From the NCBI GenBank assembly GCA_963677925.2, contig CAXXYH010000003.1:1-64000 (forward strand): a stretch of DNA of 64,000 nt, written 5' to 3'. Below the pieces are notes generated by a model that worked only from the letters and a program-made list of their open reading frames with translations, was not told where the DNA came from and ran no database searches. How positions within the stretch are numbered: position 1 is the first letter of the stretch; each line of letters begins with the position of its first letter. Shown in pieces: positions 20,333-54,967 of this stretch. The stretch comes from Spirochaetia bacterium (GTDB taxonomy: Bacteria; Spirochaetota; Spirochaetia; UBA9216). The position numbers and the translations under genes are program-made.

Positions 20333-21496
20333 TCATAATATAATGGTCGTAAGTAAAGTATAATCATCGTTTATTACAGAAGGAAACATTTGTTTTTCGA
20401 TATCTGAAATTATTTCTTTATGATTATGTACCGAGAATCTCTTATTAAGAAATATATCTTTAAAATTAATCTCAGTGAAATTTTCTGAATCTGAACCTGA
20501 TGGAAAAATTCCGTCGGTACATAGCACAAGAATATCATCTTTATATATTTTTTCAGTTACTTCTGCATATATCTCATCCGGATTTATACCCAAAGCCAGA
20601 CCGTCATGTTTTATTGATTTTATACTGTTATCTCTTATTAAATAAACAGGCGGCTGTCCGGCGTTGGCAGTTGTTATGGTCATTTTCTTAAAATCCAAAA
20701 GAACCGCACTGAAAGTTAGAAACATGTAATCAAATCCGTCAAGAAACTCGGTTATCCGTTTATTAAGCCAGGAGATTAAAGATGAAGGAGTAATATCATC
20801 AATGCTGTTTGTCCGGATATAATCAGGATAGATAATAGATTTTAAAGCTGCTGTTAGAAATGAACTCTGAACTCCATGACCGGAAACGTCACCTGACAGA
20901 ATCAGCATTTTATTTTCGGATAATTTTATAATATCGTAATAATCACCGCTTATCCCCGACTGGCTGTTAGGCATAAAGGTTACATTAACGGAACATCTGT
21001 CTTTTAAGGGGTTTTCTGCATTCATTATAGTTTTCTGCAGGTTAGAAGCTACCTGCAGGTCGGATAAGAGTTCATTTTTCATTTGAATATTTTCCTGAAC
21101 AATAGAATAATAGTTTACTGCGTTGGTTATTTCATTCTGGAGATCTTTATTATCCCATGGCTTCGCTCTATAGGCAAAGACTCCGGTGTTGATTATATCC
21201 TGCATGTCTTCCATACTTGAATGTCCAGACAGTATTATTACCGGAAGGTCCGGTGAATTCTTTTTTAACACCTTGGCAAGTTCATTTCCCTTCAATACAG
21301 GCATCTGCTGATCTGTGACAATAGTTTTAATTTCATTTTTATGATCTTTAAATATATTAACAGCATCAACGACTGTATTGGCAAAAAGCGCCTTCATCTC
21401 GTTTGCTGAAAGCCATCGCTGCATGCTTCTCATCAATGATTTCAGCACATTCTCATCATCATCTATGAATAAAACATAATTAGTCTTTGTCATCAT
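20333..21496 (-). CDS. Response regulator with PP2C/SpoIIE phosphatase output
   Basis: REC domain (FIDDD, TDQQMP, KPW) plus SGDYYD, GDVSGHG, CTDG. Confidence 0.9.
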   Translation of the reverse strand: MMTKTNYVLFIDDDENVLKSLMRSMQRWLSANEMKALFANTVVDAVNIFKDHKNEIKTIVTDQQMPVLKGNELAKVLKKNSPDLPVIILSGHSSMEDMQDIINTGVFAYRAKPWDNKDLQNEITNAVNYYSIVQENIQMKNELLSDLQVASNLQKTIMNAENPLKDRCSVNVTFMPNSQSGISGDYYDIIKLSENKMLILSGDVSGHGVQSSFLTAALKSIIYPDYIRTNSIDDITPSSLISWLNKRITEFLDGFDYMFLTFSAVLLDFKKMTITTANAGQPPVYLIRDNSIKSIKHDGLALGINPDEIYAEVTEKIYKDDILVLCTDGIFPSGSDSENFTEINFKDIFLNKRFSVHNHKEIISDIEKQMFPSVINDDYTLLTTIIL

Positions 21497-21513
21497 CCGC
21501 CTCCCTGACAGGC

Positions 21514-21960
21514 CTAATCTTCAATATCAATTTCAATCAGCCCCTGTGCATCTCTTAATTCATTATTATTTTTCAGGTGAAGTTCTTCTGATAGAATGAA
21601 AGCTTCATTTATTACAGATGAAACTTTTTCTTTAGTCCACGGTTTAAAAAGAAAACTGTATATATCTTTATTCTTTACGGCTTCTTTAATTACTTCACTG
21701 TTTGCGTATCCGGACAGCATAATTCTGACAACATCCGGATATTTTTCCTTTGTTATTTTAATCAGATCAATACCGTTCATTCCCGGCATTCTCTCATCTG
21801 TTATGAGCACGTTAACATCGTTCAGCTCAAGCAGGTGCAGAGCATCCTTCGCATTATTGGCAGTAAGCAGTTTAAAATCCGCATTTCTGAACTGCCTTAA
21901 AATTGTCTTAATAATAGGTATCTCATCATCTACAAAAAGCAGTGTTCTCTCATTCATCAT
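21514..21960 (-). CDS. Single-domain response regulator
   Basis: FVDDE, TDERMPGMNG, KPW. Confidence 0.9.
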   Translation of the reverse strand: MMNERTLLFVDDEIPIIKTILRQFRNADFKLLTANNAKDALHLLELNDVNVLITDERMPGMNGIDLIKITKEKYPDVVRIMLSGYANSEVIKEAVKNKDIYSFLFKPWTKEKVSSVINEAFILSEELHLKNNNELRDAQGLIEIDIED

Positions 21961-23827
21961 TTTTACTCCTCACATTAGGTAATTTAATAACAAAACTTGT
22001 ACCTTCTCCAACTTTGCTTTCAACATCTATTGTACCGTTGTGATCTTCGATAATGCCGAGCGAGATGGATAATCCAAGGCCTGTTCCTTTTCCGATATCC
22101 TTTGTTGTAAAAAAAGGTTCAAATAGTTTTGAAATATTTTCCGCCGGTATTCCGCTGCCTGTATCTTTTATCTTTATGGTTACCCAATCATCATCAGCAG
22201 AGGTGCTGACAAAAATTTTACCATGCTCCGATATTGCGTTTCCTGCATTAATGAGAATGTTAATGAACACCTGCGTAAGGCGGTCTTCCATGCAGTCTAT
22301 TACAGGGACTTTTTTAAGGTCAGTAATTATTTCACAGTTATATTTAAGTTCATTACGTGTAAGTTTCAGTGCTGTTTCAAGGGCATCATTAATATTTCCG
22401 GGTTTAGGTACATGATTTTCAGTTCTGGCAAAATTTTTGAGCCCCTGTACAATGTCCTTGATTTTTTCAGTTCCCGAAATTGATTCCTCTACAAGGTCGT
22501 TTATATCTGACATGATAAACTGTGTGTCCTGATTCCCGATGATATTTTTTACTTCATCAAGTGATTCGTTCAGCATTTTGCTGTCTTCAGATTGCCGCGC
22601 ATAAACTGCTTTTTCAATAGAACTGTACATTGATTTAAAAACATCAAGATATTCCTGAAGTGTTGTAAGATTATTATAGACATATCCTGTCGGATTATTT
22701 ATTTCGTGAGCAACACCTGCGGCAAGATGGCCGATAGATGCCATTTTTTCACTTGTTACCAGCTGCTCCTGTGTGCTTTTAATTTCCTCCCATGCTGTTG
22801 TAAGGCTCTTATTGGTCCATTCAAGCTGGCTTCTTCTTCTTTCAAGTGACTGATGCATTTTTATAAATGTTTCTGAAAGATACGTTATTTCACCGGCAAC
22901 TCTTGGTATTCTTGAAAGCTGTGTCCGCTTTCCCTCACTTATCTCAGAAATTTCTTTTGCAAGAATTTTAATAGGCCGGGACATTGTTATTGATGAAATT
23001 ATCGTGATAAGCAGGGTTGATATAATGCCTGTTAATATTGCCAGATAAAGCAATTTAGCACCTATTTCAGCCGAGATATTATTTCTTATCCTGTTTGAAG
23101 TATGCATCTCAATTTTAACAGGTGCAAATTCAAGTTCCAGAGAATTTACAGTGTCGTCATTTAAAAAATCACCTGATTCAATTATAAGTTCATTGTTAAT
23201 ATAAAATTTAAAACTGTGTTCAGGAGCCTGAACTGCCAGGTAATGTTTTACAGAATCATAAAATACCCTGAATTCAACCGCAAAAAGAATATACCCGTAT
23301 GAATATAAATCCTGTTCCTGTATTTTAACAAAGAATACGATTTGATGATTATCTGAGCTGATAAAAAATCCTCTGTTCTCGTCGTGCAAAGTCAATAAAG
23401 CATCATTTAAACTTTTGGTCAGTTCTGTATTTACACGGGCTTCTGATGAGGCAACGATAAGGCCTTCATTTGAAATCATATAATAAGTACCGTATATATC
23501 GCCGTTGTTAAAGGTTTTCCATTTTTCTGTTAAAAGTTCATCGGCATTCTCCGGATCTTCAAAAACGTTTTTAAAAATTAAATCCTGAGTATCATACTTC
23601 AAATCTCTGCTGTATTCATCAAGGTGACTTTCAATAATCTCTGATATTATAAGAAGTCTGTTCTGTTCATCAGCGTCTATATGGCGTCCCATGATCTGGT
23701 TAATATTAATCATAAAAACTGTCATCAATCCGGCTACAAGAAAGCCTACAATTATAAGATTCATCAGCCCCATCCGGAAAGGAATACTTCTGTTAAAAAA
23801 ACTTATAAAATTATTATTGTCTTTCAT
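21950..23827 (-). CDS. NtrB-like membrane sensor histidine kinase with HAMP domain
   Basis: AHEINNP H-box, N/G1/F/G2 boxes, two TM segments. Start 23827 follows AAGGAGG. Confidence 0.9.
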   Translation of the reverse strand: MKDNNNFISFFNRSIPFRMGLMNLIIVGFLVAGLMTVFMININQIMGRHIDADEQNRLLIISEIIESHLDEYSRDLKYDTQDLIFKNVFEDPENADELLTEKWKTFNNGDIYGTYYMISNEGLIVASSEARVNTELTKSLNDALLTLHDENRGFFISSDNHQIVFFVKIQEQDLYSYGYILFAVEFRVFYDSVKHYLAVQAPEHSFKFYINNELIIESGDFLNDDTVNSLELEFAPVKIEMHTSNRIRNNISAEIGAKLLYLAILTGIISTLLITIISSITMSRPIKILAKEISEISEGKRTQLSRIPRVAGEITYLSETFIKMHQSLERRRSQLEWTNKSLTTAWEEIKSTQEQLVTSEKMASIGHLAAGVAHEINNPTGYVYNNLTTLQEYLDVFKSMYSSIEKAVYARQSEDSKMLNESLDEVKNIIGNQDTQFIMSDINDLVEESISGTEKIKDIVQGLKNFARTENHVPKPGNINDALETALKLTRNELKYNCEIITDLKKVPVIDCMEDRLTQVFINILINAGNAISEHGKIFVSTSADDDWVTIKIKDTGSGIPAENISKLFEPFFTTKDIGKGTGLGLSISLGIIEDHNGTIDVESKVGEGTSFVIKLPNVRSKNDE

Positions 23828-23858
23828 GTTATCCTCCTTCCGAATGGGGTGCAGCGGT

Positions 23859-24797
23859 CTAACCGGCCATTGCTTCAGCACTTTTACCCTTCTCTCTTAT
23901 CCGTCTGTAAGCAGCTTTAAGCTGTGCAGATACAACACTGAATGTGAGACCGAAGTACATAAAGAACATTAAAAATCCAAGAACCGGATGTTCAAGATAT
24001 CTGCGTATGTTTGATTTACGGTATATAACTGGTCTGAAAAAATACCATCGCTTAAGCATTTCCATAAATCCGTTGGATTCCAGTCTTGCTGTAGATTCCA
24101 TTGCGGTAAAGTATCCCTTTTTTTTACTGAAAATATTTTTCCATGTTACCTGTTTTTCATCGTGGGTAACCTGTGTCTGCTGTGCCCTTCTTACAATTCC
24201 GCCCTGTTTTATGTACCGGATGGTCGGCTGAATTTCTTCAAAGGCAGTCTGCCGGGAATTAAGGCCGCCGCTTTGCTTATAAGCTCCGGTTCTCCAGAAA
24301 CGGGCTGCTTCTATTGAGTTTTTATCAAGGTCCGGGCCGGCATCGTTTAATACAGTTCTTTCAAATATTTTAACCCGGGTCCATATATTATTAAAATCAG
24401 ATACAGGTTTTTCCGGAACAACCAGAGCTCCGCAATCCGGTTCCTGCTCGAATTTCCTGACGCATGTTTCAATGCAATTTTTTTCCAGAGTCATATCACT
24501 ATCTATAAATAATATGTATTCCGGCTCATATTTCAATGCCTGTTCAATAGATGCTAATCTTGCAATACCTCTTTCACCATGGGGAAGTCTTAAGATTTCA
24601 ACTTCACTCGTAATATTCCCGGCTGTTCTGTCTGCACTGAGATAAAGATCCAGATTTTCCAAAGTATTGTCTGTAGAGCCGTCGTCAGAAATTACGACTT
24701 TGATGTCACTATAAGTCTGCTTTATTATACTGTCCAGACATGAAACTGCATGGTCCGGATTGTTATATGTTGAAAACACTACTGCTACACAACCCAT
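23859..24797 (-). CDS. Glycosyltransferase family 2
   Basis: DDGSTD, FIDSD motif, C-terminal TM. Confidence 0.85.
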   Translation of the reverse strand: MGCVAVVFSTYNNPDHAVSCLDSIIKQTYSDIKVVISDDGSTDNTLENLDLYLSADRTAGNITSEVEILRLPHGERGIARLASIEQALKYEPEYILFIDSDMTLEKNCIETCVRKFEQEPDCGALVVPEKPVSDFNNIWTRVKIFERTVLNDAGPDLDKNSIEAARFWRTGAYKQSGGLNSRQTAFEEIQPTIRYIKQGGIVRRAQQTQVTHDEKQVTWKNIFSKKKGYFTAMESTARLESNGFMEMLKRWYFFRPVIYRKSNIRRYLEHPVLGFLMFFMYFGLTFSVVSAQLKAAYRRIREKGKSAEAMAG

Positions 24798-25972
24798 TTC
24801 AGTCCTCCTTTTGAATATGTGAGAGTATTAAGAAATTCTGTAAATAATTGTCCTGTTTTTTTCCAGTCGAGTCTGAAGGCATACGAATAAGCTTTGATCT
24901 GCATGTTACGGTAATCAATGTCGTTACTGCAGGCTTTAAAACACTTGGATGCAAGCTCTTGCGTACTCCGATCACTGCACATATAACCGGCATTTCCGTA
25001 ATCTACAGCATCCCTTGTCCCTGGAGCATCAAAAACTATACTGGGAGTACCCACTGCAGCAGCCTCGCTTATAATCAAGCCCCAGCCTTCCCTGACAGAA
25101 GGAAAGATAAGAGCTTTAGCCCTGCTCATCAATTCGAGCTTTTTCTCTTCTGAAACGAAGCCCCAGATAACAACATCCGGATTTTCATCCCTTGGTCCGA
25201 TACTCAGACCGATTTTACTGCAGAGAGGCAGAAGAACCTTTTTCACATATTCATTATCAGGCTTACCCACGAGCCAAAGAACAGCATCTCTATGCTGTTT
25301 CTTAACCTCTGAAAAGGCGATAATAGCCTTGTTTATTCCCTTATAGCGGCTGTATCTGCCCACATAGATAAACGCAGGCCCTTCATCCTTTTTTTCCCAT
25401 TTATCTGCCTCCCAGGGAGTAAACGACAAACCCTCAGGCAGAATGCTTATCTTTTCCTTATTAAACCCTATTCGTATAAGTTCAGCTGCAGTTGAATTAG
25501 AAACTGTTATAGTCCGGTCATACCTGTGCAGCCGAAGCATTGGCGATTCAAGCAGATAACCTGCAAGGCTGAATGGAAAACTCATTTGCTGAAACCAGAT
25601 TTCCCTTGTCTGCTGATGAATAAAAAACAGTCTTTTTTCTTTTTCAACCCAGAAAGGAGTAAAGAACTGATGGGTATTTGACTGGTCAACCACATAATCA
25701 ATATTCTGTTTATTATAGTTATAGAATTCTTTTGCTTTGCCTATTACGTTTAATAGGGAACCTTCTCTTATATAGAGGATACCGTCAATAAACTCATAAT
25801 CTGAAAGACCATCAACACCGCATGAAAAATGTATGAAACGGTATTTATCATGGTCAGCATTTTTAAGCATTTCATGTGTATAAACTTCGGCTCCTCCGGC
25901 CTTAGGAGATTTTATATCCCTCCAGGAAAGGAAAAGCACTGTAACTCTGTTTTCACTGTAAATTTCTTTCAT
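24785..25972 (-). CDS. Glycosyltransferase family 4
   Basis: WRDIKSPKAGGAE, YVGR...KG, EGWGLIISEA. Confidence 0.9.
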   Translation of the reverse strand: MKEIYSENRVTVLFLSWRDIKSPKAGGAEVYTHEMLKNADHDKYRFIHFSCGVDGLSDYEFIDGILYIREGSLLNVIGKAKEFYNYNKQNIDYVVDQSNTHQFFTPFWVEKEKRLFFIHQQTREIWFQQMSFPFSLAGYLLESPMLRLHRYDRTITVSNSTAAELIRIGFNKEKISILPEGLSFTPWEADKWEKKDEGPAFIYVGRYSRYKGINKAIIAFSEVKKQHRDAVLWLVGKPDNEYVKKVLLPLCSKIGLSIGPRDENPDVVIWGFVSEEKKLELMSRAKALIFPSVREGWGLIISEAAAVGTPSIVFDAPGTRDAVDYGNAGYMCSDRSTQELASKCFKACSNDIDYRNMQIKAYSYAFRLDWKKTGQLFTEFLNTLTYSKGGLKWVV

Positions 25973-26000
25973 CGTATCCTCCTCAATGCAGTATGATTAT

Positions 26001-26017
26001 TGCAATAATGATGCCAA
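26001..26017 (-). promoter_or_regulatory. Sigma54 (-24/-12) promoter of the GT4-GT2-HK-RR-RR operon
   Basis: Minus strand TTGGCATCATTATTGCA, with exact GG-N10-GC spacing. Confidence 0.8.
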
Positions 26018-26055
26018 GTGCCGGTAACCGGGCAGAATGACAAAATATCAGCCTA

Positions 26056-26105: not shown

Positions 26106-26117
26106 TAGCATTCAGGT

Positions 26118-27545
26118 ATGGATACAGGAGTATATAAGCCATTGATGCTCATTGCGGATGATGATGATCTTTATCTGTCATCTCTTTTAAGGGCAATACG
26201 GAGTAATGAAATCATTGATCATATTAGACTTGATTCAGCAGCCGGAGGTCCTGAGGCTGTCAGAATGATAGAACAGAAAAAATACGATATCATTCTGACA
26301 GATCTTCATATGCCAGAAGTTCCCGGAGATCTGGTAGCCGAAGCAGCTCTTGAAGAAAATCCGGAGATTTTCATTCTTATAATGACAGGCTATTCAGATC
26401 TGAAAAGTGCGGTAGATCTTATTAAAAAGGGAATTTATGACTACATACCAAAACCCTTTAATACATCAGAGCTTATATTAAAAATCAGAAGAATAATTCT
26501 TCAGATAAAACAGAAAAATGAATTGGAAGATTTAAAGAATGAACTCAACAGAAGGAATCAGTATGACTCGTCAATAGTTTATTCTGATCCAAAAATGGGT
26601 AAATTATTAAAAACGGCTTCAGGAATCGCCGACACCGATTTTCCTGTATTAATAATGGGTGAAAGCGGTACCGGAAAAGAGCTTATAGCAGATCTTATAC
26701 ATAAGTACAGTCCCCGCTCAAACGGCCCGTTCATAAAGATAAACTGCGCCGGTCTTGTATCCAGTCTTCTTGAAAGTGAACTTTTCGGGCATGAAAAGGG
26801 GGCTTTTACCGGGGCTTTGCGGGAAAAACCGGGTAAATTTGAACTTGCCGACCATGGAACACTGTTTCTGGACGAAATCGGAGATATGGAAATGTCAATT
26901 CAGGCAAAATTCCTCCGGCTGCTTCAGCAGGGTGAATTTCAGCGTGTCGGAGGCACCCGGACTCTTAAAAGTGATGTTAGAATTCTTGCCGCAACAAATA
27001 AAAATCTTAAAAAACAGATAGAGGCAGGAGAATTCAGGGAGGATTTGTACTACAGACTGAATACAATAGAGATTGATATTCCGCCGCTTAGAGAGAGAAC
27101 ATCTGACATACCTCTGCTTGTAATGCATTTTCTTGATGCTCTTGGAGAACACTACAACAGACCGTCTGCAGGTGTCTCTAAAGAAGCTATTAAGGTTCTT
27201 TCTGCTTACAGCTACCCCGGGAATATACGTGAACTTGAGAACATTATTTCGCATGCATATGCTCTTGCCCGTGAAGATGAGATTACTATAGAGGATTTAC
27301 CGCCTCAAATTTCCAGAAGCATGCCTAAAGGGAGTGAATCCTCAGCAGAAACACCTGAAAATGATATTGTCAGAATTCATGACAACCTTCTCCGCCCTCT
27401 TGATATTCAGGTTTCCGAACTTGAAAAACAGGCCATTACAGAAGCATTAAAACAAACCGGAAACAACAGAATTCAGGCGGCGAAAATTCTTAACATATCA
27501 AGAAGACAATTTTATTATAAACTTGAAAAATATGATATCTCCTGA
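26118..27545 (+). CDS. NtrC-family sigma54-dependent response regulator
   Basis: REC domain, [20 protein letters not shown], Fis-type HTH. Confidence 0.95.
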
Positions 27546-27547
27546 TG

Positions 27548-27564
27548 TTGGCATAATAAATGCA
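27548..27564 (+). promoter_or_regulatory. Probable sigma54 promoter of the GT2-RR pair
   Basis: TTGGCATAATAAATGCA, GG-N10-GC. Confidence 0.6.
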
Positions 27565-27595
27565 TTCTATTCATATCAAACCGAATCAGGAGGAT

Positions 27596-28732: not shown

Positions 28733-29370
28733 ACGCAACAATACTTTTTGTAGATGATGAAAAAGCCGTTCTTGACGGTATTAAAAGAAGACTTTCCGGT
28801 ACACCATATTCCCTGCTTTTTGCAAACAGCGGAAAGGAAGCCCTTGGAATACTTGAAACAGTTAAGGTGGATGTTATTGTAGCAGATCTTGTTATGCCCG
28901 GGATAAGCGGTCTTCAGCTTCTTGAAGAAGTTGCCGCATCATACCCGCTGACGGTAAGAATAATCCTGTCAGGTTTTACTGAGGTTCCGTCAATTCTAAA
29001 CGCCCTTAACTCTAATCTGATATTCAGATTCCTTACAAAGCCGTGGCGCATAGATGATGATGGTCTTAATGTGCTCAAGGAAGCTGTAAAACAGGCTGAG
29101 ATGAACCGTAGTGCTGAGAACAAGGCTTTCCAGGTTCCGCTTGAAATCCTGCTGAAACTTTTTGATCAGCATAATGTTCAGTATGTAGTCGGAAATCAGG
29201 CAGGCGTTGTAGAATTCAGCAGTATTGAAAATATGATGGGAAAAACTGTAATTTACAGTGACAGCTCACATAAGCTGACAGTTTCAGGAGCAGACGGTTT
29301 GTCCCAGGGTTCAGAAGTTACTGAAATATTTTCAAGCCTTACCGGGCAGACCGCATACGTAACTTATTGA
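28729..29370 (+). CDS. Response regulator with unrecognised C-terminal extension
   Basis: FVDDE, ADLVMPG, KPW. Confidence 0.85.
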   Translation: MNATILFVDDEKAVLDGIKRRLSGTPYSLLFANSGKEALGILETVKVDVIVADLVMPGISGLQLLEEVAASYPLTVRIILSGFTEVPSILNALNSNLIFRFLTKPWRIDDDGLNVLKEAVKQAEMNRSAENKAFQVPLEILLKLFDQHNVQYVVGNQAGVVEFSSIENMMGKTVIYSDSSHKLTVSGADGLSQGSEVTEIFSSLTGQTAYVTY

Positions 29371-31316: not shown

Positions 31317-31361
31317 TTACAAAATTTGCACAATTAGCAATTTAGCTACATTTTCTGCACA
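31317..31361. promoter_or_regulatory. Two putative enhancer (UAS) boxes
   Basis: TTACAAAATTTGCAC is identical to 26074-88; TACATTTTCTGCACA is the reverse complement of 26090-104. Confidence 0.6.
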
Positions 31362-31413: not shown

Positions 31414-31430
31414 TTGGCATGTTTGTTGCA
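31414..31430 (+). promoter_or_regulatory. Sigma54 promoter of the LruC-domain gene
   Basis: TTGGCATGTTTGTTGCA. Confidence 0.8.
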
Positions 31431-31467: not shown

Positions 31468-33465
31468 ATGAAAAACATAATAATTATGATACTGACAGTA
31501 TTTTTTATATTCGGATGTACCGCAGGATTCATTCCTGAAGATATATCAGATGATACTGCCGATATTTCAACAGCCGCGGCAGACGGCGGTTCAGACGGAG
31601 CCCCATTATCTGACGAGGATTTCAATTACAGCACCTCAAAATGGATTTTAGTTACAATTCTAACCGATTATCCTGAGGTTCCTTTTGACGTTTATGATGA
31701 TAAGGGTAAAATGCTTATATCAGCGAAAACAGGCTCCGACGGCAGTCTTAATTTGAGTATTACCGCAGCAGAAACAACTGAAACCCTTTTTATTAAAACT
31801 GATTACATTGGAATGCCCGGTGAAATTGAGGCGGAGCTTGAAAATGATGCAGTAAATATTGATTTAAGACATTCATCACAGGGGACTGCCAGAGCTTTCA
31901 GTTCAAGAGCTCTTACAGTCGCACCGCTGTATCAGTCAATAAGCGGTCTTCCTTCATATAAAATACTCGGAAGCTGGTCTTCCAACGGCAAGCCCCTGTA
32001 TCTGGACAGTAGAAAGAGTATTTCAGCTGAACTTCTCGCTGCTCTTAACGAAGCTGTCCCGGAATATCAGCCTGTCCCGGAGTACAGACCTCAATACCTG
32101 ATGGATACTGTTGATACAGATCTTCATATGACTGAGAGCGGTGAAGTTTTTGTCACCTTTATTCATGAAGGTGCGGGATATAAAAATGCATTAGGTTTCT
32201 ATACATACAATACGGCTGACGGACCACCTGAATCTGTTCCTGATGAAGATATTACAATAATTTTTCCTAACGTGAGCTACTACTACGGCGGAGGAGAGCT
32301 GGTAAGTGGTGATACTGTTAAAATCGGTACTTTTGACGCCGGTACATCAATCGGCTGGACGCTTATTTCCAATGCTTACAGCACGCGTTTTTACGGAGTT
32401 ACATCAGGTTTGAATACATTCTACTCTGAAAGCAGTCTTAATCCTGATGCCTCTCCCTATCAGCAGCACATAATTCAGCTTGATCTGAACGGTGAGATTG
32501 TTCTGGGCATTGAAGACCTGGTAAGACCCGGCGGAGATAATGATTTTAATGACGCTATCTTTACTGTAAGTTCCAATCCTGTAACGGCCATCAGCAGATC
32601 CGGCCTTGTTACAGATACAACCGTTCATTATACAGCTCCTGAAGAACCTGCAGATACACTTACTCTGAAGGACGCTCCCCTGTATACAGTTACCGGTTAT
32701 CAGTTTTTCCCCGGCATGGATGAATACGGCACACTTGCCTATGAGGACCTGTGGCCATGGAAGGGCGATTATGATTTCAACGACCTGGTCCTTGATTATA
32801 ATGTTATTGAAGCCCTTGATGCAGATAACAAAATAGTTCAGATACAGCTTAGTCTCAAAATAGTGGGAATTATTGCAAGTATGCATAACGGATTCGGAGT
32901 ACAGCTAGGTGTTGCTCCCGAGCTTGTTGCATCAGTAAGCGGAGCTCTATATACAAAGGGCGACATTTACGTTGCTGATAACGGAACAGAATTACGACAG
33001 CAGAAGGCAGTAATTATAGTTTTTGAGGATGCCCAGGAGCATTATAATGCGGCTTCACCGGATGATTCAGAACTTATAGAGGTTTCAATAAACTTCGTAA
33101 GAGGCGTAACAAGATCTGAACTCGGCTTTGCGCCCTATAATCCCTTTATCATCAGTAACGGTGAGCGTGGAAGAGAGGTACATCTTCCCGGATACCAGCC
33201 TACAAGTCTGGTTCATATTCCATACTTCGGTAGTGAGGATGATGACAGCGTCATCGGTACAACCTTTGTCTACAAGACAACCAATGATCTCCCCTGGGCA
33301 CTGCACCTTCCTGAGCCCTTTGCCTATCCCTATGACAGCATAAAAATTTATGATGCTTACAATCTTTTTCAGACCTGGGTTGACAGCAACGGCTTCAGTT
33401 ATTCGGACTGGTACATGGATAAACCCGATTACAGGAATTTAACCAGAATTATGCGTATTCCTTAA
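31468..33465 (+). CDS. LruC/DUF4842-domain surface lipoprotein (with DUF4114-like central domain)
   Basis: Lipobox FIFGC; HEGAGYKNALG, GIEDL..DNDFNDAIF, YEDLWPWKGDYDFNDLV, PYNPFI, EVHLP. Start 31468 because the upstream TTG lies inside the promoter. Confidence 0.85.
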   Translation: MKNIIIMILTVFFIFGCTAGFIPEDISDDTADISTAAADGGSDGAPLSDEDFNYSTSKWILVTILTDYPEVPFDVYDDKGKMLISAKTGSDGSLNLSITAAETTETLFIKTDYIGMPGEIEAELENDAVNIDLRHSSQGTARAFSSRALTVAPLYQSISGLPSYKILGSWSSNGKPLYLDSRKSISAELLAALNEAVPEYQPVPEYRPQYLMDTVDTDLHMTESGEVFVTFIHEGAGYKNALGFYTYNTADGPPESVPDEDITIIFPNVSYYYGGGELVSGDTVKIGTFDAGTSIGWTLISNAYSTRFYGVTSGLNTFYSESSLNPDASPYQQHIIQLDLNGEIVLGIEDLVRPGGDNDFNDAIFTVSSNPVTAISRSGLVTDTTVHYTAPEEPADTLTLKDAPLYTVTGYQFFPGMDEYGTLAYEDLWPWKGDYDFNDLVLDYNVIEALDADNKIVQIQLSLKIVGIIASMHNGFGVQLGVAPELVASVSGALYTKGDIYVADNGTELRQQKAVIIVFEDAQEHYNAASPDDSELIEVSINFVRGVTRSELGFAPYNPFIISNGERGREVHLPGYQPTSLVHIPYFGSEDDDSVIGTTFVYKTTNDLPWALHLPEPFAYPYDSIKIYDAYNLFQTWVDSNGFSYSDWYMDKPDYRNLTRIMRIP

Positions 33466-33482
33466 TACTTAGTTAAAAGAAT

Positions 33483-33514
33483 AAAAACGGCTGTCTCATG
33501 ACGGTCGTTTTTTT
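33483..33514. terminator. Bidirectional intrinsic terminator between convergent genes
   Basis: A5-CGGCTGTC-TCAT-GACGGTCG-T7. Confidence 0.65.
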
Positions 33515-36500
33515 ATGCCCGATGAAATTAAATGTTTTATTCTGCGAATTAGGGGCAGAGGATGTTTCAGAATGCGGAAACCAATAAACAGAAAAATCAA
33601 CGCAGCGGGTATTCCTGCCAGACCTCTAAAATACATAGCTTTAAACATGACTCCAAGATCAGGAATTTCATCCTGATCACCTATGACATGACCCTGTGTC
33701 AATCCGTTGATAATAACTGGGTCTGCATTACCCCGTACCCAAAGCGGCGAAGGTGATTTAAAGCTGTTTATAACTGACTTTCCTGACACCGGAGTCGAAG
33801 GAGTTTTTGCTTCTACTACTGCAAGTGCATCAAGAAGTGCAAATTCTGAAACAGCATAAAACCCAAGGTCTTGAACGTTCAGAAGTCCTCTATCAAATTT
33901 ACTGCCCCTCGCCCACCATTGAATGACAGCATATACGGCCTTCTCCGGTGCTATGGTAAGATGCTCATATTTATTATCACGGCTCTTGTAGCTCTCTTCA
34001 ACCTCCGGAATATAGTCAGTTGATATTATACGCTTCTCTTCATTCAAATACAGTATTTTGCTGTGACGTTTATCCAGATGCTCTGAACCAGCTGTATAAC
34101 CAAGATAGTATTCTTTTCCTGGAGAGACTCTAAGTAAACTGCTTGAAACAATATACCAGTCGCAGGAACAGGTAGCTTCAGCCTCTGCACTAAAATCAAT
34201 CTGATTTCCCCCTGACCTGCGTACATTAAGACTTAAATCATCATAACTTATTTTTTCACATTCGCTGCAGTCAATTTCCTGCTGCGGTGGAAGGTAGGCC
34301 GGCAGTTTTATTTCTGCAGGACTGAATTTACGCAGGCTGTTTACTGAAAGAAGGTTTTCGGCATCAGAACTGAACTCAATCTTAATATTATAAGTTCCAG
34401 CCGGCAGTCTTAAATCACCGGTTTTAAATTTTCCTAAAGACGGAAATTCATCAGGCAGGTCAATTATTTTCCGTTTATATTCAGCCCTTGGATCCTCATC
34501 AGTATTTTCAATAATAATACCGTCGGAATCCTCATCATTGCTGAAAGTTACCGGAAAGGAAACAGGCTGAAAATAATCGCTTGTTAAATCCAGTGGAATT
34601 ACAGAGAGAGTCATTCCCGGGGCTGTATATTTATAACCCCCGAATAATTCAATGTGATATATACTGCTTTCTGGAATAATGACCCTTCGCGTCGCTTCTC
34701 CTGAGCGTGATCTTATAGCGTTACCTCTGCTCAATACAGGAGCTCTTCTGCTGCTTTGAATTTCGCCATTAAAATCAAAATCAGATTCCGCTTCATATCC
34801 TATAACGGTCGTTGACCGGTGAAGTGCGGCATCTGCGGCAGCCATAAATCTTCCTGTTTCATTTTCCGGCACCGCCGCAATAAGGTTGATTCCCTGAAAA
34901 CCTTCATGGTTTGTAATTGTAAACTTTTCCCCTTTTACGAGATTGAATGTTCCAAGCTCGGTCCAGACAAAACCTGATTTTGAAATGCTTTGTGTTTTAA
35001 TTTCTGTTTGTTTCTCAGCCGTATCGAATAAGAGAGTTCCTCCGGAGGGTGAGTGAAAATTTCTCATAAAAAACCTGTAACGGCCTGAGTCTTTATTAAA
35101 AGGAACTGAAAAACTGTTGGGAATGCTGAAATCTGAAAGATCTTCAAGCTCAAGGTCATGTATCCACCAGTGTATTCTCTGCTCAGCTCTCTGACGGCTG
35201 AGAATGTCTATTCTGCATTCAGCAGTTTCGGGCGGTGTCACAAATTCTGTATAAAACTCCAGACTGTCGTAATTAGTGAACTCTCCGGGAGCAACAGCAT
35301 AGGAAATACCCAGTTCATTTTGATTCTTATCATAAAACCTCAATTTCAAATGAAGCTGGTTGGCACCACGGCCTGAGACAAGAACTGAAAAACGGTAGGG
35401 AGTTTTCTCATGCATCTGAATCATACCTGACTTTGCAACCTGCCAGAGCTTTCCCTGATCACTTTGGGCAATAATTCCCCGTATAAGAGGAAACACATTG
35501 CCTTCAGAAATAGGATTCGCGGCAATCTCAAAACTTTCCGGGTTATCTGCCTTAAAAAACAGATCCATCCTCAGCATAGTGTTGAAATCAAGTACTATCG
35601 CCCCGTTTAATGCAGGCCATCTGTAGTTTGGAGGGACAAGGCTTGCAGGAGAATATGTCATTGCAAGATTGGATGAGAAATCAAATTCATATCCGAAATC
35701 ATATATTCCGAGTGATTCAAGCTGCCAAAGCCAGTCGCCTGTATGAGCAGCAGTCTGAGACCATCCCAGCAGAGGATTTCCGGTTTTCAGTTCCAGAGCA
35801 GGATACAGGTACTGATCTGCGGGCAGTGTATTCAGCCAGACCTGTTCAGGCTGCTTTGTAAAAAGATAAGCTTCGGATGCCTTCAGATTGAGCGATTCTT
35901 CATGCGTTGATAAGGTTGTGTAAAAAACAGATGAGGCCTCCCCCGTTATTCCAAGTCTTGCTAATAGAGATTCGCTTGCAATACCTTCAGTATTAATAAC
36001 AGGTGTATCTACACGCTTAAGGGTATCGCTTCCCGTAAATCGGTAGACGGTAAAAATGGAATTTTCATAAATCTTTGCGGCATTTCTCTGCATATCAAGC
36101 ATCTGAAGATTAAACTGCTGTCTGTCTTCCTGTCCTGTAAACTGATTCTGATAAACCAGGGTATCAATTCCAAGCACAGGCAGAAAACCCGCATTTGAAT
36201 TGGAAAGTCCAAGGTCTAGATCATGCTGAAGGTATGAAAGATGATAGCCGATAGACGGCAGATTTCCCTCATGATGAAAAAAGGTATCCCGCTCCATCTG
36301 GTATATTGTGTAGTCGCCTGTTGCTTTTTCCAGAATATCGGGCCGGCCTGCAGTATTCCAGAAATAAGTTGCCACGCCAGTAGACGGCTGAGTCATATTA
36401 TCAGCAACCGGAAATATCAGAACTCTGCTTGAGCCATTTGAGGCAAGATACCTGTTTACCAGGCTGTACTCTTCAGGAACAATTACGGGTTTATAATATC

Positions 36501-37887
36501 CCGACAGGTATCGATCGTAATAAGGGGCCAGATAGAGAAATACGGCAGCTAAATAGATTCCTATGGCAATACTTATCCTTCCATGAGTCAGAAAGGTCCG
36601 GTTTAACCAGTGAAATCCGAATATAATAAACAGGGAATATCCAAGTGCTGTCAGGCCTGAAAGTTTATTCGGATCACGGAACATACTTCCTATTACCGGG
36701 GTTTTTGTAACAAGGGTTACAAAAAGGGAATCTATATACTTATAATAAGTACCTGTTGAAAGAATTAAAAACAGTACTGTTAAGACCGTAAAAAATAATA
36801 GAATCGGATATCTTCCGGCTGAGGATAGAAAGCCTGTGATAATCAGTATGATAATAAAGATTACAGAAATGTTAAACGATAAAGGCAGAGCCGAAAGATC
36901 AAACATCGGCCACCAGTAACCGGTTAAGGCAAGGCTGTTTGCGGCATTCGCGTTTCTGCTGAACATCATTAAAGTATCATTTACATTAATATTATGCTGA
37001 GATCCCTGCGTTCCCTTCAGTATACCCATGACATATACTGAAAGCCAGTGAAAAGATAATAGTGAAAGAAAAAAGACGAGAACTATAGCTTTTACAAAAA
37101 AATTGGCAATTATCGAGCGTTCATAAAGGACTCCTTCCCTTCTGTGCGCTGCCAGGGTTTTTACAAGCAAAGCAGCCCACAGCCCTGCATACATAATGAT
37201 GGTATAGAAAAAATAGTGTATTGCGGCTGAAAGTGTTGAGATGACAAGTGCGGCAAGAAAGATATCAAAAAGATTTCTGCTGTACATCCTCTGACGTGAT
37301 ACTCTGTAATTTTTTATCAGCTGACTTTGAAATTTGGGGTCGAAAATATTAAAAAATAGAAGCAAAGCCAACGGCAGAAGACTGTATCCGCATAGAAGAT
37401 ATAAATGCTGTATCCTGGTGATAAACCATGGATTTGCAGCATAAAAGAGTGCACCAAGTGATACGAAAAAGACGGAGGCAAAAGAAAATCTGCTACCTAA
37501 ATATACAGAAGTAATTCTTTTTCCGAAAAGATACATTGAAAAGGCACTGATGATAACCAGAAGAATTATATATGTTTTGATAAAAACAGCGCCGCTGAAG
37601 CCGAAAACAGCAGACAACAGCCAGGGCCAGAAGGTGTATAATAGACGGGGCAGATTCAGCTGTGTTGAAGTATTCCAGCGTTCATTCCATATACCGGTAA
37701 GCTCCTCGAGATATCTCTTACTGTCGCCTGGAAAATCAAGATCACTGAAGATTATATGCCCTTCTGAAAGAATCGGAGAATATATACCTAATAAGACTAA
37801 AAAAAGCAGCAGTAAGGCTATGGCGTCATAACGGTAGGGAAAAAGAAGTTGATTTAGTTTCCAGAAATTACTTTGCCGTTTTATCAT
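33496..37887 (-). CDS. Large membrane protein: GT-C (AftD/YfhO-like) N-terminus, carbohydrate-binding-like periplasmic domains, C-terminal anchor
   Basis: About 12-13 TM segments in the first ~460 aa, FSDLDFP loop, YAANPW, MFRDPNK, long beta-rich C-terminus. Confidence 0.6.
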   Translation of the reverse strand: MIKRQSNFWKLNQLLFPYRYDAIALLLLFLVLLGIYSPILSEGHIIFSDLDFPGDSKRYLEELTGIWNERWNTSTQLNLPRLLYTFWPWLLSAVFGFSGAVFIKTYIILLVIISAFSMYLFGKRITSVYLGSRFSFASVFFVSLGALFYAANPWFITRIQHLYLLCGYSLLPLALLLFFNIFDPKFQSQLIKNYRVSRQRMYSRNLFDIFLAALVISTLSAAIHYFFYTIIMYAGLWAALLVKTLAAHRREGVLYERSIIANFFVKAIVLVFFLSLLSFHWLSVYVMGILKGTQGSQHNINVNDTLMMFSRNANAANSLALTGYWWPMFDLSALPLSFNISVIFIIILIITGFLSSAGRYPILLFFTVLTVLFLILSTGTYYKYIDSLFVTLVTKTPVIGSMFRDPNKLSGLTALGYSLFIIFGFHWLNRTFLTHGRISIAIGIYLAAVFLYLAPYYDRYLSGYYKPVIVPEEYSLVNRYLASNGSSRVLIFPVADNMTQPSTGVATYFWNTAGRPDILEKATGDYTIYQMERDTFFHHEGNLPSIGYHLSYLQHDLDLGLSNSNAGFLPVLGIDTLVYQNQFTGQEDRQQFNLQMLDMQRNAAKIYENSIFTVYRFTGSDTLKRVDTPVINTEGIASESLLARLGITGEASSVFYTTLSTHEESLNLKASEAYLFTKQPEQVWLNTLPADQYLYPALELKTGNPLLGWSQTAAHTGDWLWQLESLGIYDFGYEFDFSSNLAMTYSPASLVPPNYRWPALNGAIVLDFNTMLRMDLFFKADNPESFEIAANPISEGNVFPLIRGIIAQSDQGKLWQVAKSGMIQMHEKTPYRFSVLVSGRGANQLHLKLRFYDKNQNELGISYAVAPGEFTNYDSLEFYTEFVTPPETAECRIDILSRQRAEQRIHWWIHDLELEDLSDFSIPNSFSVPFNKDSGRYRFFMRNFHSPSGGTLLFDTAEKQTEIKTQSISKSGFVWTELGTFNLVKGEKFTITNHEGFQGINLIAAVPENETGRFMAAADAALHRSTTVIGYEAESDFDFNGEIQSSRRAPVLSRGNAIRSRSGEATRRVIIPESSIYHIELFGGYKYTAPGMTLSVIPLDLTSDYFQPVSFPVTFSNDEDSDGIIIENTDEDPRAEYKRKIIDLPDEFPSLGKFKTGDLRLPAGTYNIKIEFSSDAENLLSVNSLRKFSPAEIKLPAYLPPQQEIDCSECEKISYDDLSLNVRRSGGNQIDFSAEAEATCSCDWYIVSSSLLRVSPGKEYYLGYTAGSEHLDKRHSKILYLNEEKRIISTDYIPEVEESYKSRDNKYEHLTIAPEKAVYAVIQWWARGSKFDRGLLNVQDLGFYAVSEFALLDALAVVEAKTPSTPVSGKSVINSFKSPSPLWVRGNADPVIINGLTQGHVIGDQDEIPDLGVMFKAMYFRGLAGIPAALIFLFIGFRILKHPLPLIRRIKHLISSGIKKRPS

Positions 37888-39037
37888 TTTTTACCCGGGG
37901 CTTCCTCCTGACTGTCTTTTTCACTGCGGATTTTTTTCTGCTTAAACGTCCGGAATCTTTTTTACCCTGAGGTGACTTTTCCTGTATTACCTCTAGATCG
38001 TTATAAAGATAGTTAATATCATTTCTGATTTCATCAAGAACAGGCAGATTTTTCCTTACCCGCTCTATAGATTTGAGCAGTCTTCTGAAAAACAGCATAT
38101 CACCGGTATACCTGTCGGAAACGAGTAGATTCTCACCGAACTCTGCTACTGATTTGTTTAAATACCAGGCTGTAACAAAAGCACCTGCCGAAACAAGTAA
38201 AAATGCAAGAATCATCAGGTTCAGAAAACCAGACCGTTGCACAAAGGCCAGACTCTGGTCCTGAATTACTGAAAAATAAATTCGTTCCGGAAAAATACGT
38301 ATGGAAGTATAAGATATCCGCATTGATTCGAATGTCTCTGTATTCGAATATCCGTCAATCATCTTTTCTGTAATCTGATTAAGAAGCGTTATATAAGGAT
38401 TTTCAGGGAATTTTGAATCATATAAAACATGGTAGTTTCTATTTAAAAGCTGTATTCTGATATTTTCAAATTCAAGCAGATACGCACTGTAAAAGGGCAT
38501 TTTCATTATTATTGCCGCATATCTGTATGGGCTTTCCCCATCCAAAACATTATTTATCAGGAACAGTACCGGTATAAAATCTCCTCCATCCAATATAAAA
38601 CGATATGAAAAATAATCAGAAAAAATTTCATTTTGCAATGATGAACGGATTTCACCTTGAATCTCAGATTCCTCTAGTCTGCCGTTATCAGACATTCCTC
38701 CGGTAAAGGAATAGTCATCATCATATAAACTTATCTGCTGAATATAATTACCCTTATAATTTAAGTGTTCATAGAAAGACTCGGGATTCATTCCGTCCTC
38801 TGTAAAATTAAGGTAGGCATACCTGCTGAAATCATTAAAGTAGTTTTCACCTGTGCGGCTTAGCGAATCACGTATGGTTTCAAGTTCTGTATCCTGATTC
38901 TGTATATGCAGGCCGGTAATACGGGTAAAAGCGGCAAAGATTAAAATTGCAAAGGGAATTAGAATAGCTGCAATTACAACAAAGTAAAGCTTCCTGGAAA
39001 TTGTCAGTGTAATTCCTTTAAGAATTTTTATATTCAT
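37868..39037 (-). CDS. Two-TM membrane protein with Cache-like extracytoplasmic domain and no clear output domain
   Basis: TM - ~230-aa periplasmic region - TM - short basic tail. Confidence 0.5.
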   Translation of the reverse strand: MNIKILKGITLTISRKLYFVVIAAILIPFAILIFAAFTRITGLHIQNQDTELETIRDSLSRTGENYFNDFSRYAYLNFTEDGMNPESFYEHLNYKGNYIQQISLYDDDYSFTGGMSDNGRLEESEIQGEIRSSLQNEIFSDYFSYRFILDGGDFIPVLFLINNVLDGESPYRYAAIIMKMPFYSAYLLEFENIRIQLLNRNYHVLYDSKFPENPYITLLNQITEKMIDGYSNTETFESMRISYTSIRIFPERIYFSVIQDQSLAFVQRSGFLNLMILAFLLVSAGAFVTAWYLNKSVAEFGENLLVSDRYTGDMLFFRRLLKSIERVRKNLPVLDEIRNDINYLYNDLEVIQEKSPQGKKDSGRLSRKKSAVKKTVRRKPRVKNDKTAK

Positions 39038-39113
39038 GAAATAATTATATTCTACTGAAAGAAATTGTCAAAATCATGAAAATTCTATTTCTAAAAACTT
39101 TGATTTTGAAGGC

Positions 39114-40361
39114 ATGAAAAACTATGCTGAATATATGAAAGCTGCTGGAAAAATCATAATAATATTTATAGTATCTGTCATATCAGCAGAATCTCTGTAT
39201 GCAGATGACCCTGTATTTCTGATGCCGGTGGAATTGGTTACGGAGGTATATGACAAGGTTGATGAAGAACCAAATAATCAGCAGCTTGGCGGAGTCCTTC
39301 TGAGTGTAAAACCCCAGATAATCTGGAAACTTGATAATGCGCTGCTTCTTTTATCATTACAGATTTACGGATATCTTGGTGAAACTACTTCAGAGATTCC
39401 TGAGGAGGCTGCCGATCCTGTTCTTTCATACTCAGGAAGTTTTAGCAGTCAGGATCTTATCGGTATAGCTCTAAAGCCCGACAGCTTTTATCAGTCAACT
39501 ATCAGAGATTCTGATTTATATTTCAAAGTCGGAAAGTATACTACTGAAATACCATTTCTTTACGGTGGTGATCTGGTTTCAGGCCAGTTTGAATTTGGAA
39601 TCAGAAAAACTGATAAATACCGCATATACACAAGTTCTATCTTCTATAACTGGTTTACAACAGATATATTTGAACAGCCGGATCAGAAAATAATACAGCT
39701 GCTTGCCATGAATCTGTGGTTTGGGGAGCAAAACATTAGTCTGTATTATCCCTTCCTTATAAACAATGCATTTCTTGAACAGTATCATTTTCCATCGGTT
39801 CAGTGGATTTTCAGCGGAGAAAAGATTAGAAATGATGTATTCGGCGGATTCAGCTACCATAAAAATCTTGAAGGAGAATCAGGATATTCATGGGCGGTCC
39901 GTGAGGAAGCCGGAATAAGATATGGTGAAGCATGGAGAACCAGTATAATGTACAGCTTTCTGAGTGCTTCTGATACAGTTACAAATAATTATGCTTTCAC
40001 ATCGGTAGATGCACAGACTCCGTATTTAAGTTACGGACATCATTTTGATTATATTTATGAAGTTATCGGAAATATCTACGGTCTGCATTCTGCTGGTATT
40101 CATCAGGCGTTTTCAAAAGAAGATCTGAGCTGGTGGCTGGAATCAGCTGTATTTTTCACAGCCCTTCCTTCTGATTCAGCTTCTAAATTTGCCGGAGTAG
40201 CCCTTCGGGGAGACATGAAGCTTTTTAACCTGTGGAATTCCGGAAGTATATTGGAAATATACGGAGCAGTTCTTTTTCCCGGATCTTTCTCACAGAGAAA
40301 TCTGGATAAAACTTACAATCCGGGGTATCAATTATTAATAAAACTGCAGCAGAATTTTTAA
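39114..40361 (+). CDS. Putative outer-membrane beta-barrel (alginate-export-like)
   Basis: Signal peptide, amphipathic strands, terminal YQLLIKLQQNF. Confidence 0.55.
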   Translation: MKNYAEYMKAAGKIIIIFIVSVISAESLYADDPVFLMPVELVTEVYDKVDEEPNNQQLGGVLLSVKPQIIWKLDNALLLLSLQIYGYLGETTSEIPEEAADPVLSYSGSFSSQDLIGIALKPDSFYQSTIRDSDLYFKVGKYTTEIPFLYGGDLVSGQFEFGIRKTDKYRIYTSSIFYNWFTTDIFEQPDQKIIQLLAMNLWFGEQNISLYYPFLINNAFLEQYHFPSVQWIFSGEKIRNDVFGGFSYHKNLEGESGYSWAVREEAGIRYGEAWRTSIMYSFLSASDTVTNNYAFTSVDAQTPYLSYGHHFDYIYEVIGNIYGLHSAGIHQAFSKEDLSWWLESAVFFTALPSDSASKFAGVALRGDMKLFNLWNSGSILEIYGAVLFPGSFSQRNLDKTYNPGYQLLIKLQQNF

Positions 40362-54966: not shown

Positions 54967-54967
54967 A

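Follow-up and report, generated by a model that had tools for sequence, protein, structure and literature searches.

The window analyzed here, a stretch of 64,000 nt, belongs to a Spirochaetia bacterium (assembly GCA_963677925.2, contig CAXXYH010000003.1). Its positions 20333 to 40361 harbor a locus in which genes for glycosyltransferases (GTs), a flippase candidate and an LruC-domain lipoprotein are interleaved with regulatory genes and with the gene of a 1463-aa protein (g12). A first-pass annotation made from the sequence alone had proposed a sigma-54-controlled surface glycosylation locus. Fourteen open reading frames (ORFs) arranged in five transcription units were found, each of them where that annotation had placed it:

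20333–21496, minus strand: g01, response-regulator receiver with PP2C/SpoIIE phosphatase (PF00072 2e-16, PF07228 9e-27)
21514–21960, minus strand: g02, single-domain receiver with acceptor Asp and Lys present (PF00072 4e-19)
21950–23881, minus strand: g03, membrane histidine kinase of 643 aa (HATPase_c 3e-26)
23859–24797, minus strand: g04 (GT2a), membrane-anchored GT2 (PF00535 8e-21)
24785–25972, minus strand: g05, GT4 glycosyltransferase, first gene of its operon (PF00534 3e-26)
26118–27545, plus strand: g06, NtrC-type sigma-54 enhancer-binding protein, REC-AAA+-HTH_8 (PF00158 7e-70, PF00072, PF02954)
27560–28732, plus strand: g07 (GT2b), soluble GT2, candidate polyprenyl-phosphate sugar synthase (PF00535 4e-15)
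28729–29370, plus strand: g08, receiver protein of 213 aa (PF00072 5e-18)
29339–30586, minus strand: g09, Wzx/MOP-like flippase candidate with multiple transmembrane (TM) segments (Polysacc_synt E 2e-4, under cut-off)
30570–31265, minus strand: g10, protein of 231 aa containing HELNSP, an H-box-like motif (no Pfam match)
31469–33465, plus strand: g11, LruC-domain lipoprotein, DUF4114 + DUF4842 (TIGR04456 5e-65, PF16130 2e-46, PF13448 4e-23)
33496–37887, minus strand: g12, AftD-like GT-C glycosyltransferase of 1463 aa, by predicted fold
37868–39037, minus strand: g13, bitopic membrane protein of 389 aa (no family)
39114–40361, plus strand: g14, secreted 415-aa protein ending in Phe (no family)

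Searches of Pfam and NCBIfam bore out ten of the labels given previously, namely those of the receiver-PP2C protein, the single receiver, the kinase, both GT2 enzymes, the GT4 enzyme, the activator, the receiver protein, LruC and, weakly, the flippase. No family in either database was matched by g10, g12, g13 and g14. The GT-C-like label of g12 was confirmed by its predicted fold and not by family searches, which brings the labels that stand to 11 of 14; those of g10 as a pseudo-kinase, g13 as an orphan sensor and g14 as a beta-barrel are unproven. The DD, acceptor-Asp and Lys residues are retained in all four receivers of the locus, including that of g01, the final gene of the GT4 operon. The kinase g03 possesses hydrophobic segments at residues 42–60 and 269–298 and matched the histidine kinase subfamily NF038348 at 1e-77, which is under the cut-off. 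In agreement with the earlier statement that no Wzy/Wzc or synthase-type polymerase is recognizable, neither Wzy, Wzc, an initiating phosphoglycosyl transferase (PGT) nor a multi-TM synthase was found among the 14 proteins by Pfam and NCBIfam.

The 1463-aa GT-C protein

The protein g12 was folded with AlphaFold2 as two overlapping pieces (residues 1–700 and 611–1463). For the first piece, an input alignment of 34 relatives yielded a model with a pLDDT of 85.2 and a pTM of 0.88. Compared with the PDB by Foldseek, this model gave AftD (6w98) as the first match (E 1.8e-9, TMq 0.54). Twelve matches had E ≤ 0.001, every one of them a GT-C protein, with STT3, AftA, PglB, AglB, DPY19, Pmt and ArnT following AftD. 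VIA, which is independent of Foldseek, returned AglB with a Z of 22.0 (448 aa, root-mean-square deviation 4.7), STT3B (21.6), AftD (20.7; 516 aa, root-mean-square deviation 4.1), Pmt4 (19.7), PglB (19.1) and AftA (18.4). Only GT-C-type membrane proteins occurred among its best 20 rows, and Z values of 15–22 were obtained with AglB, STT3B, AftD, Pmt, PglB, AftA, ALG12, DPY19, ArnT and AftB. The N-terminal module of g12 is thus confidently predicted to carry a GT-C fold. The first-pass annotation had staked its proposal on such a fold; it is present in the model, with AftD as the best Foldseek match.

According to the two models, g12 consists of a GT-C module (approximately residues 1–620), at least four jelly rolls resembling carbohydrate-binding modules (CBMs; approximately 690–1360) and two C-terminal helices (approximately 1416–1457). 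The model of residues 611–1463 had a pLDDT of 83.9. Its beta-sandwiches matched CBM35, CBM22, CBM36, CBM6 and CBM4 with Z values of 9.5–12.3 over 114–140 residues, and a match at Z 10–12 indicates the fold and is not proof of sugar binding. The catalytic acid of GT-C enzymes usually sits just after the first helix. In g12, Asp49 within the motif GHI-FSD directly follows TM1 (helix 2–35 of the model) and is kept in at least 90% of 35 sequences; by its position it is the candidate catalytic acid.

At the sequence level, g12 did not match any Pfam family at E ≤ 0.01, nor at E ≤ 10, PF11847 included, and no NCBIfam model was matched either. Since the family profile also found nothing meaningful among PDB sequences, the kinship to GT-C enzymes is seen by fold only. 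A cluster neighboring g12 in the ESM Atlas contains PF11847 in 24% of its members, which we regard as a lead only. A search of 5.8 billion proteins disclosed 100 full-length relatives with identities of 25–53%. Almost all of them are named hypothetical proteins, and a Pfam domain was present in just one, a protein of 1825 aa with an added GT2. In the genome of the window the GT-C gene is single-copy.

We compared g12 with the two groups of GT-C enzymes that it resembles most. AftD is described as carrying a TM region at either end, between which a soluble GT-C domain, three CBMs and one further beta-sandwich are placed, at an average of ~1381 aa and 16 TM helices, and its homologues were reported only from Actinobacteria (10.1101/2019.12.22.885152). 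By this description, g12 (1463 aa) shows the same overall plan as AftD (PDB 6W98) including the soluble alpha/beta domain, and the sequence model PF11847 does not recognize it. The two proteins differ in that they share only 12–13% identity in structural alignments, that the g12 family mostly occurs in Bacillota, and that g12 has about two C-terminal helices, fewer than are described for AftD. Moreover, the genes neighboring the relatives of g12 point to mannose and not to decaprenyl-phospho-arabinose, and an acyl carrier protein as partner is not indicated.

The oligosaccharyltransferases (OSTs) AglB, STT3 and PglB of family GT66 match the membrane module and the first soluble domain of g12 equally strongly (Z 19–22). 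The OST family is marked by the WWDxG motif. This motif is absent from g12, whose WW motifs are limited to YWWPMFD (325), HWWIHD (907) and QWWARG (1324). The protein also failed to match the STT3 model of Pfam, and it bears the CBM-like array that OSTs lack.

A cassette recurring across phyla

Related loci were collected by scanning one genome per species, which resulted in 72 loci, several of them on short truncated contigs. By tblastn with the proteins of the window, GT2a was detected in 63 of the 72 loci, GT4 in 62, the flippase in 59, GT2b in 55 and a receiver like g08 in 51. LruC and g13 were each detected in two loci, g10 and g14 in none. Unsupervised clustering of all ORFs from these loci and the window (73 sources) gave a similar picture, with clusters for GT-C (69 sources), GT2a (63), GT2b (61), GT4 (60), the flippase (58) and the receiver (53). 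Further genes recur in the relatives that are not present in the window, above all for a ManC-like nucleotidyltransferase/mannose-6-phosphate isomerase (46) and a type I phosphomannose isomerase (PMI; 16). Kinase-like genes (28), hybrid kinases (12) and Hpt proteins (12) also recur. The cassette pattern and the gene order were repeated in 19 metagenome loci. Hence, the conserved unit comprises GT-C, GT2a, GT4, GT2b, the flippase and the receiver, often together with GDP-mannose genes and some His-Asp signaling. Because the core genes are found as a group in the majority of the 72 loci, the arrangement at the locus is not due to chance, and the co-occurrence on which the earlier proposal depended was found. 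Neither a PGT, Wzy, a co-polymerase nor a synthase was among the annotated recurrent gene clusters. As to the system that had been envisaged, the cassette proved real, but it is special neither to this organism nor to LruC, since it mostly resides in Gram-positive Bacillota devoid of LruC.

The carriers are chiefly Paenibacillus, Exiguobacterium, Clostridium and other Bacillota. In addition, the cassette was detected in Fusobacteriaceae, Bdellovibrionales and Myxococcota, in one metagenome-assembled genome (MAG) each of Kosmotogaceae and Spirochaetaceae, and in MAGs of Margulisiibacteriota and Gracilibacteria, so that both monoderm and diderm hosts are included. None of 300 other sampled genomes (126 genera) from the phylum of the window possessed it. 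In a quick maximum-likelihood tree, the GT-C protein of the window grouped with a relative termed P0002 (support 100) and with that of the Spirochaetaceae MAG (support 97), a join flagged as long-branch. This group was nested within a tree dominated by Bacillota. Plasmid p1 of Cetobacterium sp. SF1 (189.7 kb; locus L042) harbors a complete cassette, with genes for GT-C, GT2a, GT4, the flippase, a kinase fragment and GT2b. This plasmid copy is direct evidence of the mobility of the cassette.

The individual components were compared with known proteins. GT2a has one C-terminal hydrophobic segment (residues 272–290), and its best matches among PDB sequences were chondroitin synthase, GalT1 and SpsA. 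Judged by these nearest relatives, it is probably of the glycan-extending type. A natural fusion of GT2a and GT-C exists in protein P0095, whose residues 3–273 are 46% identical to GT2a and are followed by a GT-C module. In the GT4 enzyme g05 we saw the WRD..P..GG.E motif that had been quoted before, together with E-x7-E. GT2b matched the NCBIfam models of PpgS (3e-11), a Dol-P-hexose transferase (2e-9), ArnC (4e-9) and AglJ (4e-8), all under the cut-offs, and its best PDB sequence match was ArnC (6e-4). Weak NCBIfam matches were also obtained for GT2a (AglG) and GT4 (Agl16). The N-terminal ~130 aa of GT2b (window 27560–27950) are receiver-like by sequence pattern but lack the acidic pocket; this portion is present in most relatives.

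The start of the receiver gene g08 overlaps the stop of GT2b, and its product has a C-terminal extension of ~90 aa. In some cassette receivers the acceptor Asp is replaced, by Glu in two Exiguobacterium loci (L029, L035) and by Asn in a Salimicrobium locus (L026), while the Lys is kept; these may be phosphorylation-independent pseudo-receivers. The flippase candidate g09 possesses 12–13 hydrophobic segments, and its homologue from the Bdellovibrionales MAG (L052) matched Polysacc_synt at 1.4e-5. Between the receiver and the flippase of the latter locus (4767–6584, plus strand), a 605-aa protein without family is encoded, the first half of which gave weak TPR matches (E 0.008–0.012). It might be a TPR-plus-barrel export protein as in synthase-dependent systems.

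Predicted sigma-54 control and lineage-specific genes

Exact sites of the form TGGCAY-N5-TTGCA were found twice in the 64 kb (0.11 expected), in front of the GT4 operon and of the LruC gene. The following control elements were located:

26001–26016, minus strand: sigma-54 -24/-12 promoter TGGCATCATTATTGCA, 29 nt before the GT4 start codon
26057–26088, no strand assigned: candidate activator-binding site at the GT4 promoter, an inverted pair GTGCAAA...TTTGCAC containing the 13-mer ACAAAATTTGCAC
31319–31331, plus strand: repeat of the 13-mer ACAAAATTTGCAC, lying 84 nt in front of the sigma-54 promoter of LruC
31415–31430, plus strand: sigma-54 -24/-12 promoter TGGCATGTTTGTTGCA, 38 nt before the LruC ATG at 31469

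The 13-mer exists in exactly two copies in the 5.04-Mb genome, both of them at the locus and upstream of the two promoters. For the LruC gene, ATG 31469, which opens a lipobox-like signal (MKNIIIMILTVFFIFGC), is the most likely start. TTG 31414 is very likely wrong, because ATG 31469 begins a lipoprotein-like signal; the sigma-54 site falls between both starts. The genome contains one rpoN gene (G000:C4:471744-472220) and ~21 strong sigma-54 activator genes. The activator g06 has GAFTGA at residue 228, and its gene is directly followed by those of GT2b and g08. Taken together, the two exact sites, the shared genome-unique 13-mer, rpoN and the GAFTGA activator support the sigma-54 control that had been proposed, here for the GT4 operon and the LruC gene, and LruC is predicted to be co-regulated with the GT operon. 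A further candidate at 27549–27564 (two mismatches) was rejected, as it overlaps the start codon of GT2b. In the Spirochaetaceae MAG (L051), an exact and nearly identical site, TGGCATCATAATTGCA, lies ~93 nt before the GT4 ORF; no convincing site was found in the Bdellovibrionales locus.

Among the 72 loci, it is in the spirochaete clade only that the kinase, the receiver-PP2C protein and the activator are conserved together with the cassette. A full-length homologue of g06 was found in the Spirochaetaceae locus only (44% identity over 98% of the length), where a g13 homologue occurs as well. The activator, LruC, g13 and g14 are lineage-specific additions to the cassette.

LruC itself was clearly identified by TIGR04456 (220.1 bits, cut-off 36), and g11 is the sole DUF4842 protein of the genome. 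It stands beside the cassette in 2 of 72 species loci and in none of the 19 metagenome loci; the copies with LruC are those of the spirochaetes and of Bdellovibrionales. Owing to this rarity, a role of LruC as general acceptor or anchor is ruled out. The previous suggestion that it is modified by, or anchors, the glycan therefore fails as a general role, although its predicted co-regulation with the GT operon stands. In diderms, LruC may bind, anchor or export the product.

The three proteins with unproven labels were also analyzed. The gene product g10 matched NCBIfam kinase models at E 0.007 only and showed no ATPase signature. Just two homologues were identified (70% and 61% identical). A kinase-like nature was not borne out, as hhalign gave a probability of 5% against kinase DHp/CA alignments and a PDB sequence search yielded nothing relevant; a phosphotransfer role similar to Spo0B is speculation. 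The idea that g13 and g10 represent a split version of the 577-aa kinase-like gene preceding GT-C in Paenibacillus was dismissed, since pairwise BLASTP revealed nothing significant. The protein g13 has hydrophobic segments at residues 19–37 and 264–293, and the stop of its gene overlaps the GT-C start by 20 nt. In four loci (L047, L051, L078, L091), the GT-C gene is immediately preceded by the gene of a g13 homologue (22–25% identity).

The third protein, g14, has an N-terminal hydrophobic segment and a C-terminal Phe. In the ESM Atlas it lay close to hypothetical proteins of Spirochaetota and to an Alginate_exp cluster (0.97), which is an unconfirmed lead of the language model. Its family comprises 9 representatives among 1.84 billion proteins, and its alignment found no relative in the first metagenome scan. 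An AlgE-like barrel was not corroborated: no Pfam model, PF13372 included, was matched by any of 8 family members, and the profile had no match among PDB sequences. The g14 homologue P0104 and the GT-C homologue P0003 both reside on contigs of 13469 bp, which suggests linkage. It is possible that g14 is an outer-membrane barrel.

Some other features of the window are mentioned here. A DUF4256 gene (19781–20317, minus strand) is situated 15 nt past g01 and may share the transcript of the sigma-54 operon; the conserved cassette does not include it. The locus is also flanked by genes for a MASE11-HD-GYP-type protein (43798–45042, plus strand) and a histidine kinase (46281–47570, plus strand), for which no evidence of belonging was found. 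A gene for an AcrB-type RND pump (631–2842, minus strand) is split into at least two ORFs, 1139–2842, covering positions 4–534 of the 1021 positions of the profile, and 631–1149, covering 553–724. No ORF of 130 aa or more was found for its last third. The pump gene, which has intact MFP and OEP genes beside it, may represent a frameshifted pseudogene. Finally, an island of low GC content (25–33% vs. ~36–42% elsewhere) extends from ~50000 to 62900 and ends at a phage-type integrase gene (61702–62856). Several of its ORFs do not belong to known families. The 16-mer TGTCACAGTTCTGGCT occurs in this island exactly at 55190, 59118 and 60465 and as a near copy at 57499; at least two copies, those at 59118 and 60465, are located 115–135 nt upstream of minus-strand ORFs.

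A proposed glycan pathway and its alternatives

We consider it rather probable that the locus is the spirochaete version of an uncharacterized cassette whose product would be a surface glycan made at the outer side of the cytoplasmic membrane. Our best reading is that the cassette, which would be horizontally spread and widespread, represents a self-contained, polyprenyl-phosphate-dependent surface glycan pathway whose product probably contains mannose. The observations proper are the modeled folds, the joint occurrence of the genes, the GT2a-GT-C fusion and the cis elements; from them we infer the following steps. GT2b would charge polyprenyl phosphate with a sugar, probably mannose as the relatives carry GDP-mannose genes (ManC/PMI). 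GT4 and the membrane-anchored GT2a would act in the cytoplasm to lengthen a lipid-linked primer or unit, and the Wzx-like MOP protein would flip the lipid-linked material across the membrane. There, g12 would perform the extracytoplasmic transfer or polymerization, with its CBM-like modules holding the growing glycan. The dedicated receiver protein, which accompanies the cassette, presumably gates it. In the organism of the window, the NtrC-type activator, the kinase and the receivers may have been added, acting on two sigma-54 promoters that share an upstream site, as well as LruC, g13 and g14 as putative diderm-specific parts. The CBM-like modules and the mannose-activation genes of the relatives favor a glycan product, most likely a mannose-containing exopolysaccharide or lipoglycan.

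Several points weigh against this pathway. The matches of GT2b to polyprenyl-phosphate GTs are far under the curated cut-offs, and the protein has no hydrophobic segment. Moreover, it is GT2a and not GT2b which is fused to GT-C, and this could mean that GT2a supplies the donor. Neither ManC nor PMI is encoded near the locus in the window, and the best ManC-like match of the genome lies far off on another contig. Asp49 is a candidate catalytic acid by its position in the model, and the CBM-like modules are, as stated, matches of fold. Sigma-54 sites precede only two of the five transcription units, none being present at GT-C/g13, g10/flippase or g14. Since the OST matches are as strong as that of AftD, a protein acceptor is possible. 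The sugar, the acceptor and the product of the cassette have all been deduced.

The gene set was also compared with multi-component systems. GtrA/B/C and CsbB-GtcA-YfhO are multi-component transmembrane glycosylation systems. The haloarchaeal Agl pathway has GT2 and GT4 enzymes upstream and a MOP flippase, which resembles the logic of the cassette. In the actinobacterial lipomannan/lipoarabinomannan pathway, the GT4 enzymes PimA/B prime a glycolipid, the GT2 enzyme Ppm1 makes polyprenyl-phosphate mannose, and the GT-C enzymes Mpt/Emb/Aft elongate outside. The gene set of the cassette and its association with ManC (46 of 73 sources) fit this division of labor. However, no component was shown to be a member at the sequence level, one giant GT-C stands where that pathway has several, and the carriers lie outside the Actinobacteria. 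As to the Wzx/Wzy pathway, only a Wzx-like protein is present in the 14 proteins and in the annotated recurrent clusters, and PGT, Wzy and co-polymerase are absent from both. The ribofuranose system ORF15-MATE-ORF12 of Citrobacter is described as having a GT-C of family GT136 with a CBM and a MATE/MOP-family flippase (PMC11127046).

Like this system, GtrA/B/C and CsbB-GtcA-YfhO, the cassette combines a flippase and a GT-C with a GT2 that may be of the polyprenyl-phosphate type, and in most loci GT2b is accompanied by the MOP-like protein (with its weak Polysacc_synt match) and the GT-C. It might therefore be argued that only these three components matter, GT2b making a polyprenyl-phosphate sugar, MOP flipping it and GT-C adding single side-chain sugars to an envelope polymer of other origin, with GT4 and GT2a as accessories. 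The best matches of GT2b, PpgS and ArnC, agree with such a decoration, as does the Citrobacter O-antigen system with its CBM-bearing GT-C (PMC11127046). We nevertheless regard it as unlikely. The cassette includes two further GTs, a receiver protein and often ManC, its GT-C is ~1460 aa long with at least four beta-sandwiches, GT4 and GT2a equal the trio in conservation (60 and 63 of 73 sources), and GT2a is fused to GT-C in P0095. In addition, a shared pre-existing acceptor is improbable because the envelopes of the hosts (Bacillota, Fusobacteriota, Thermotogota, Spirochaetota, Bdellovibrionota and candidate phyla) are unrelated to one another and a plasmid carries a copy. The unrelated envelopes and the equal conservation of all four glycosyltransferases are the reasons why a self-contained polymer is favored over decoration.

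A glycosylation of proteins, in which GT2b, GT2a and GT4 assemble a short glycan on polyprenyl monophosphate that is flipped and moved en bloc by an OST-like g12 to proteins, perhaps LruC, after the manner of the haloarchaeal AglJ/AglG/AglR/AglB route, would agree with the top VIA matches (AglB 22.0, STT3B 21.6; PglB 19.1), with the weak similarities of GT2b to AglJ, GT2a to AglG and GT4 to Agl16, and with the finding that LruC, the only DUF4842 protein of the genome, has the same type of sigma-54 site and the same 13-mer as the GT operon. Yet g12 lacks both WWDxG and an STT3 Pfam match, and its four or more CBM-like modules point to a glycan acceptor. Because of this array and the rarity of LruC (2 of 72 and 0 of 19 loci), a protein acceptor is less likely, and we give this explanation little credence. 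That there is no single system at all but a mere neighborhood of unrelated glycosyltransferases, regulators and membrane proteins seems highly improbable: five to six of the genes are found together in most loci and in different phyla, a natural GT2a-GT-C fusion exists and two operons share a genome-unique cis element. What speaks for it is that for g10 and g14 no homologue was found in the 72 loci and that conservation of the kinase, the receiver-PP2C protein and the activator with the cassette is limited to the spirochaete clade.

Returning to the self-contained glycan pathway, no described pathway, curated family or paper for the GT-C family or the cassette was found in Pfam, NCBIfam and the open-access full texts searched, which was the comparison on which its novelty had been made to depend. 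Thus, the earlier view of an undescribed lipid-linked glycan or protein-glycosylation system stands as to its being undescribed, and the product may be a free glycan, a lipoglycan or a glycoprotein. More tentatively, and with considerable doubt, we raise the possibility of a route that has not been named so far: units on polyprenyl monophosphate would be made without a PGT, flipped by a MOP protein and polymerized by a giant GT-C with its own CBM array. The GT-C polymerase would do what Wzy, a synthase or an ABC transporter does elsewhere, and the route, gated by a receiver, would move between phyla and plasmids.

Giant GT-C enzymes of the AftD type are known from the actinobacterial cell wall. 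The g12 family has the same predicted fold and plan without belonging to the sequence model, and it sits in a conserved cassette of six to seven genes that occurs across dozens of Bacillota species and patchily in other phyla. As carriers such as Paenibacillus, Exiguobacterium and Clostridium are easily grown bacteria from soil or industry, the product is directly testable; possibly a mannan-like exopolysaccharide or lipoglycan, it would be relevant to biofilms and glycoengineering. The spirochaete copy represents a small, clean sigma-54 regulon, as predicted from two promoters and one shared genome-unique upstream site, and the locus gives the LruC-domain lipoprotein its first functional context.

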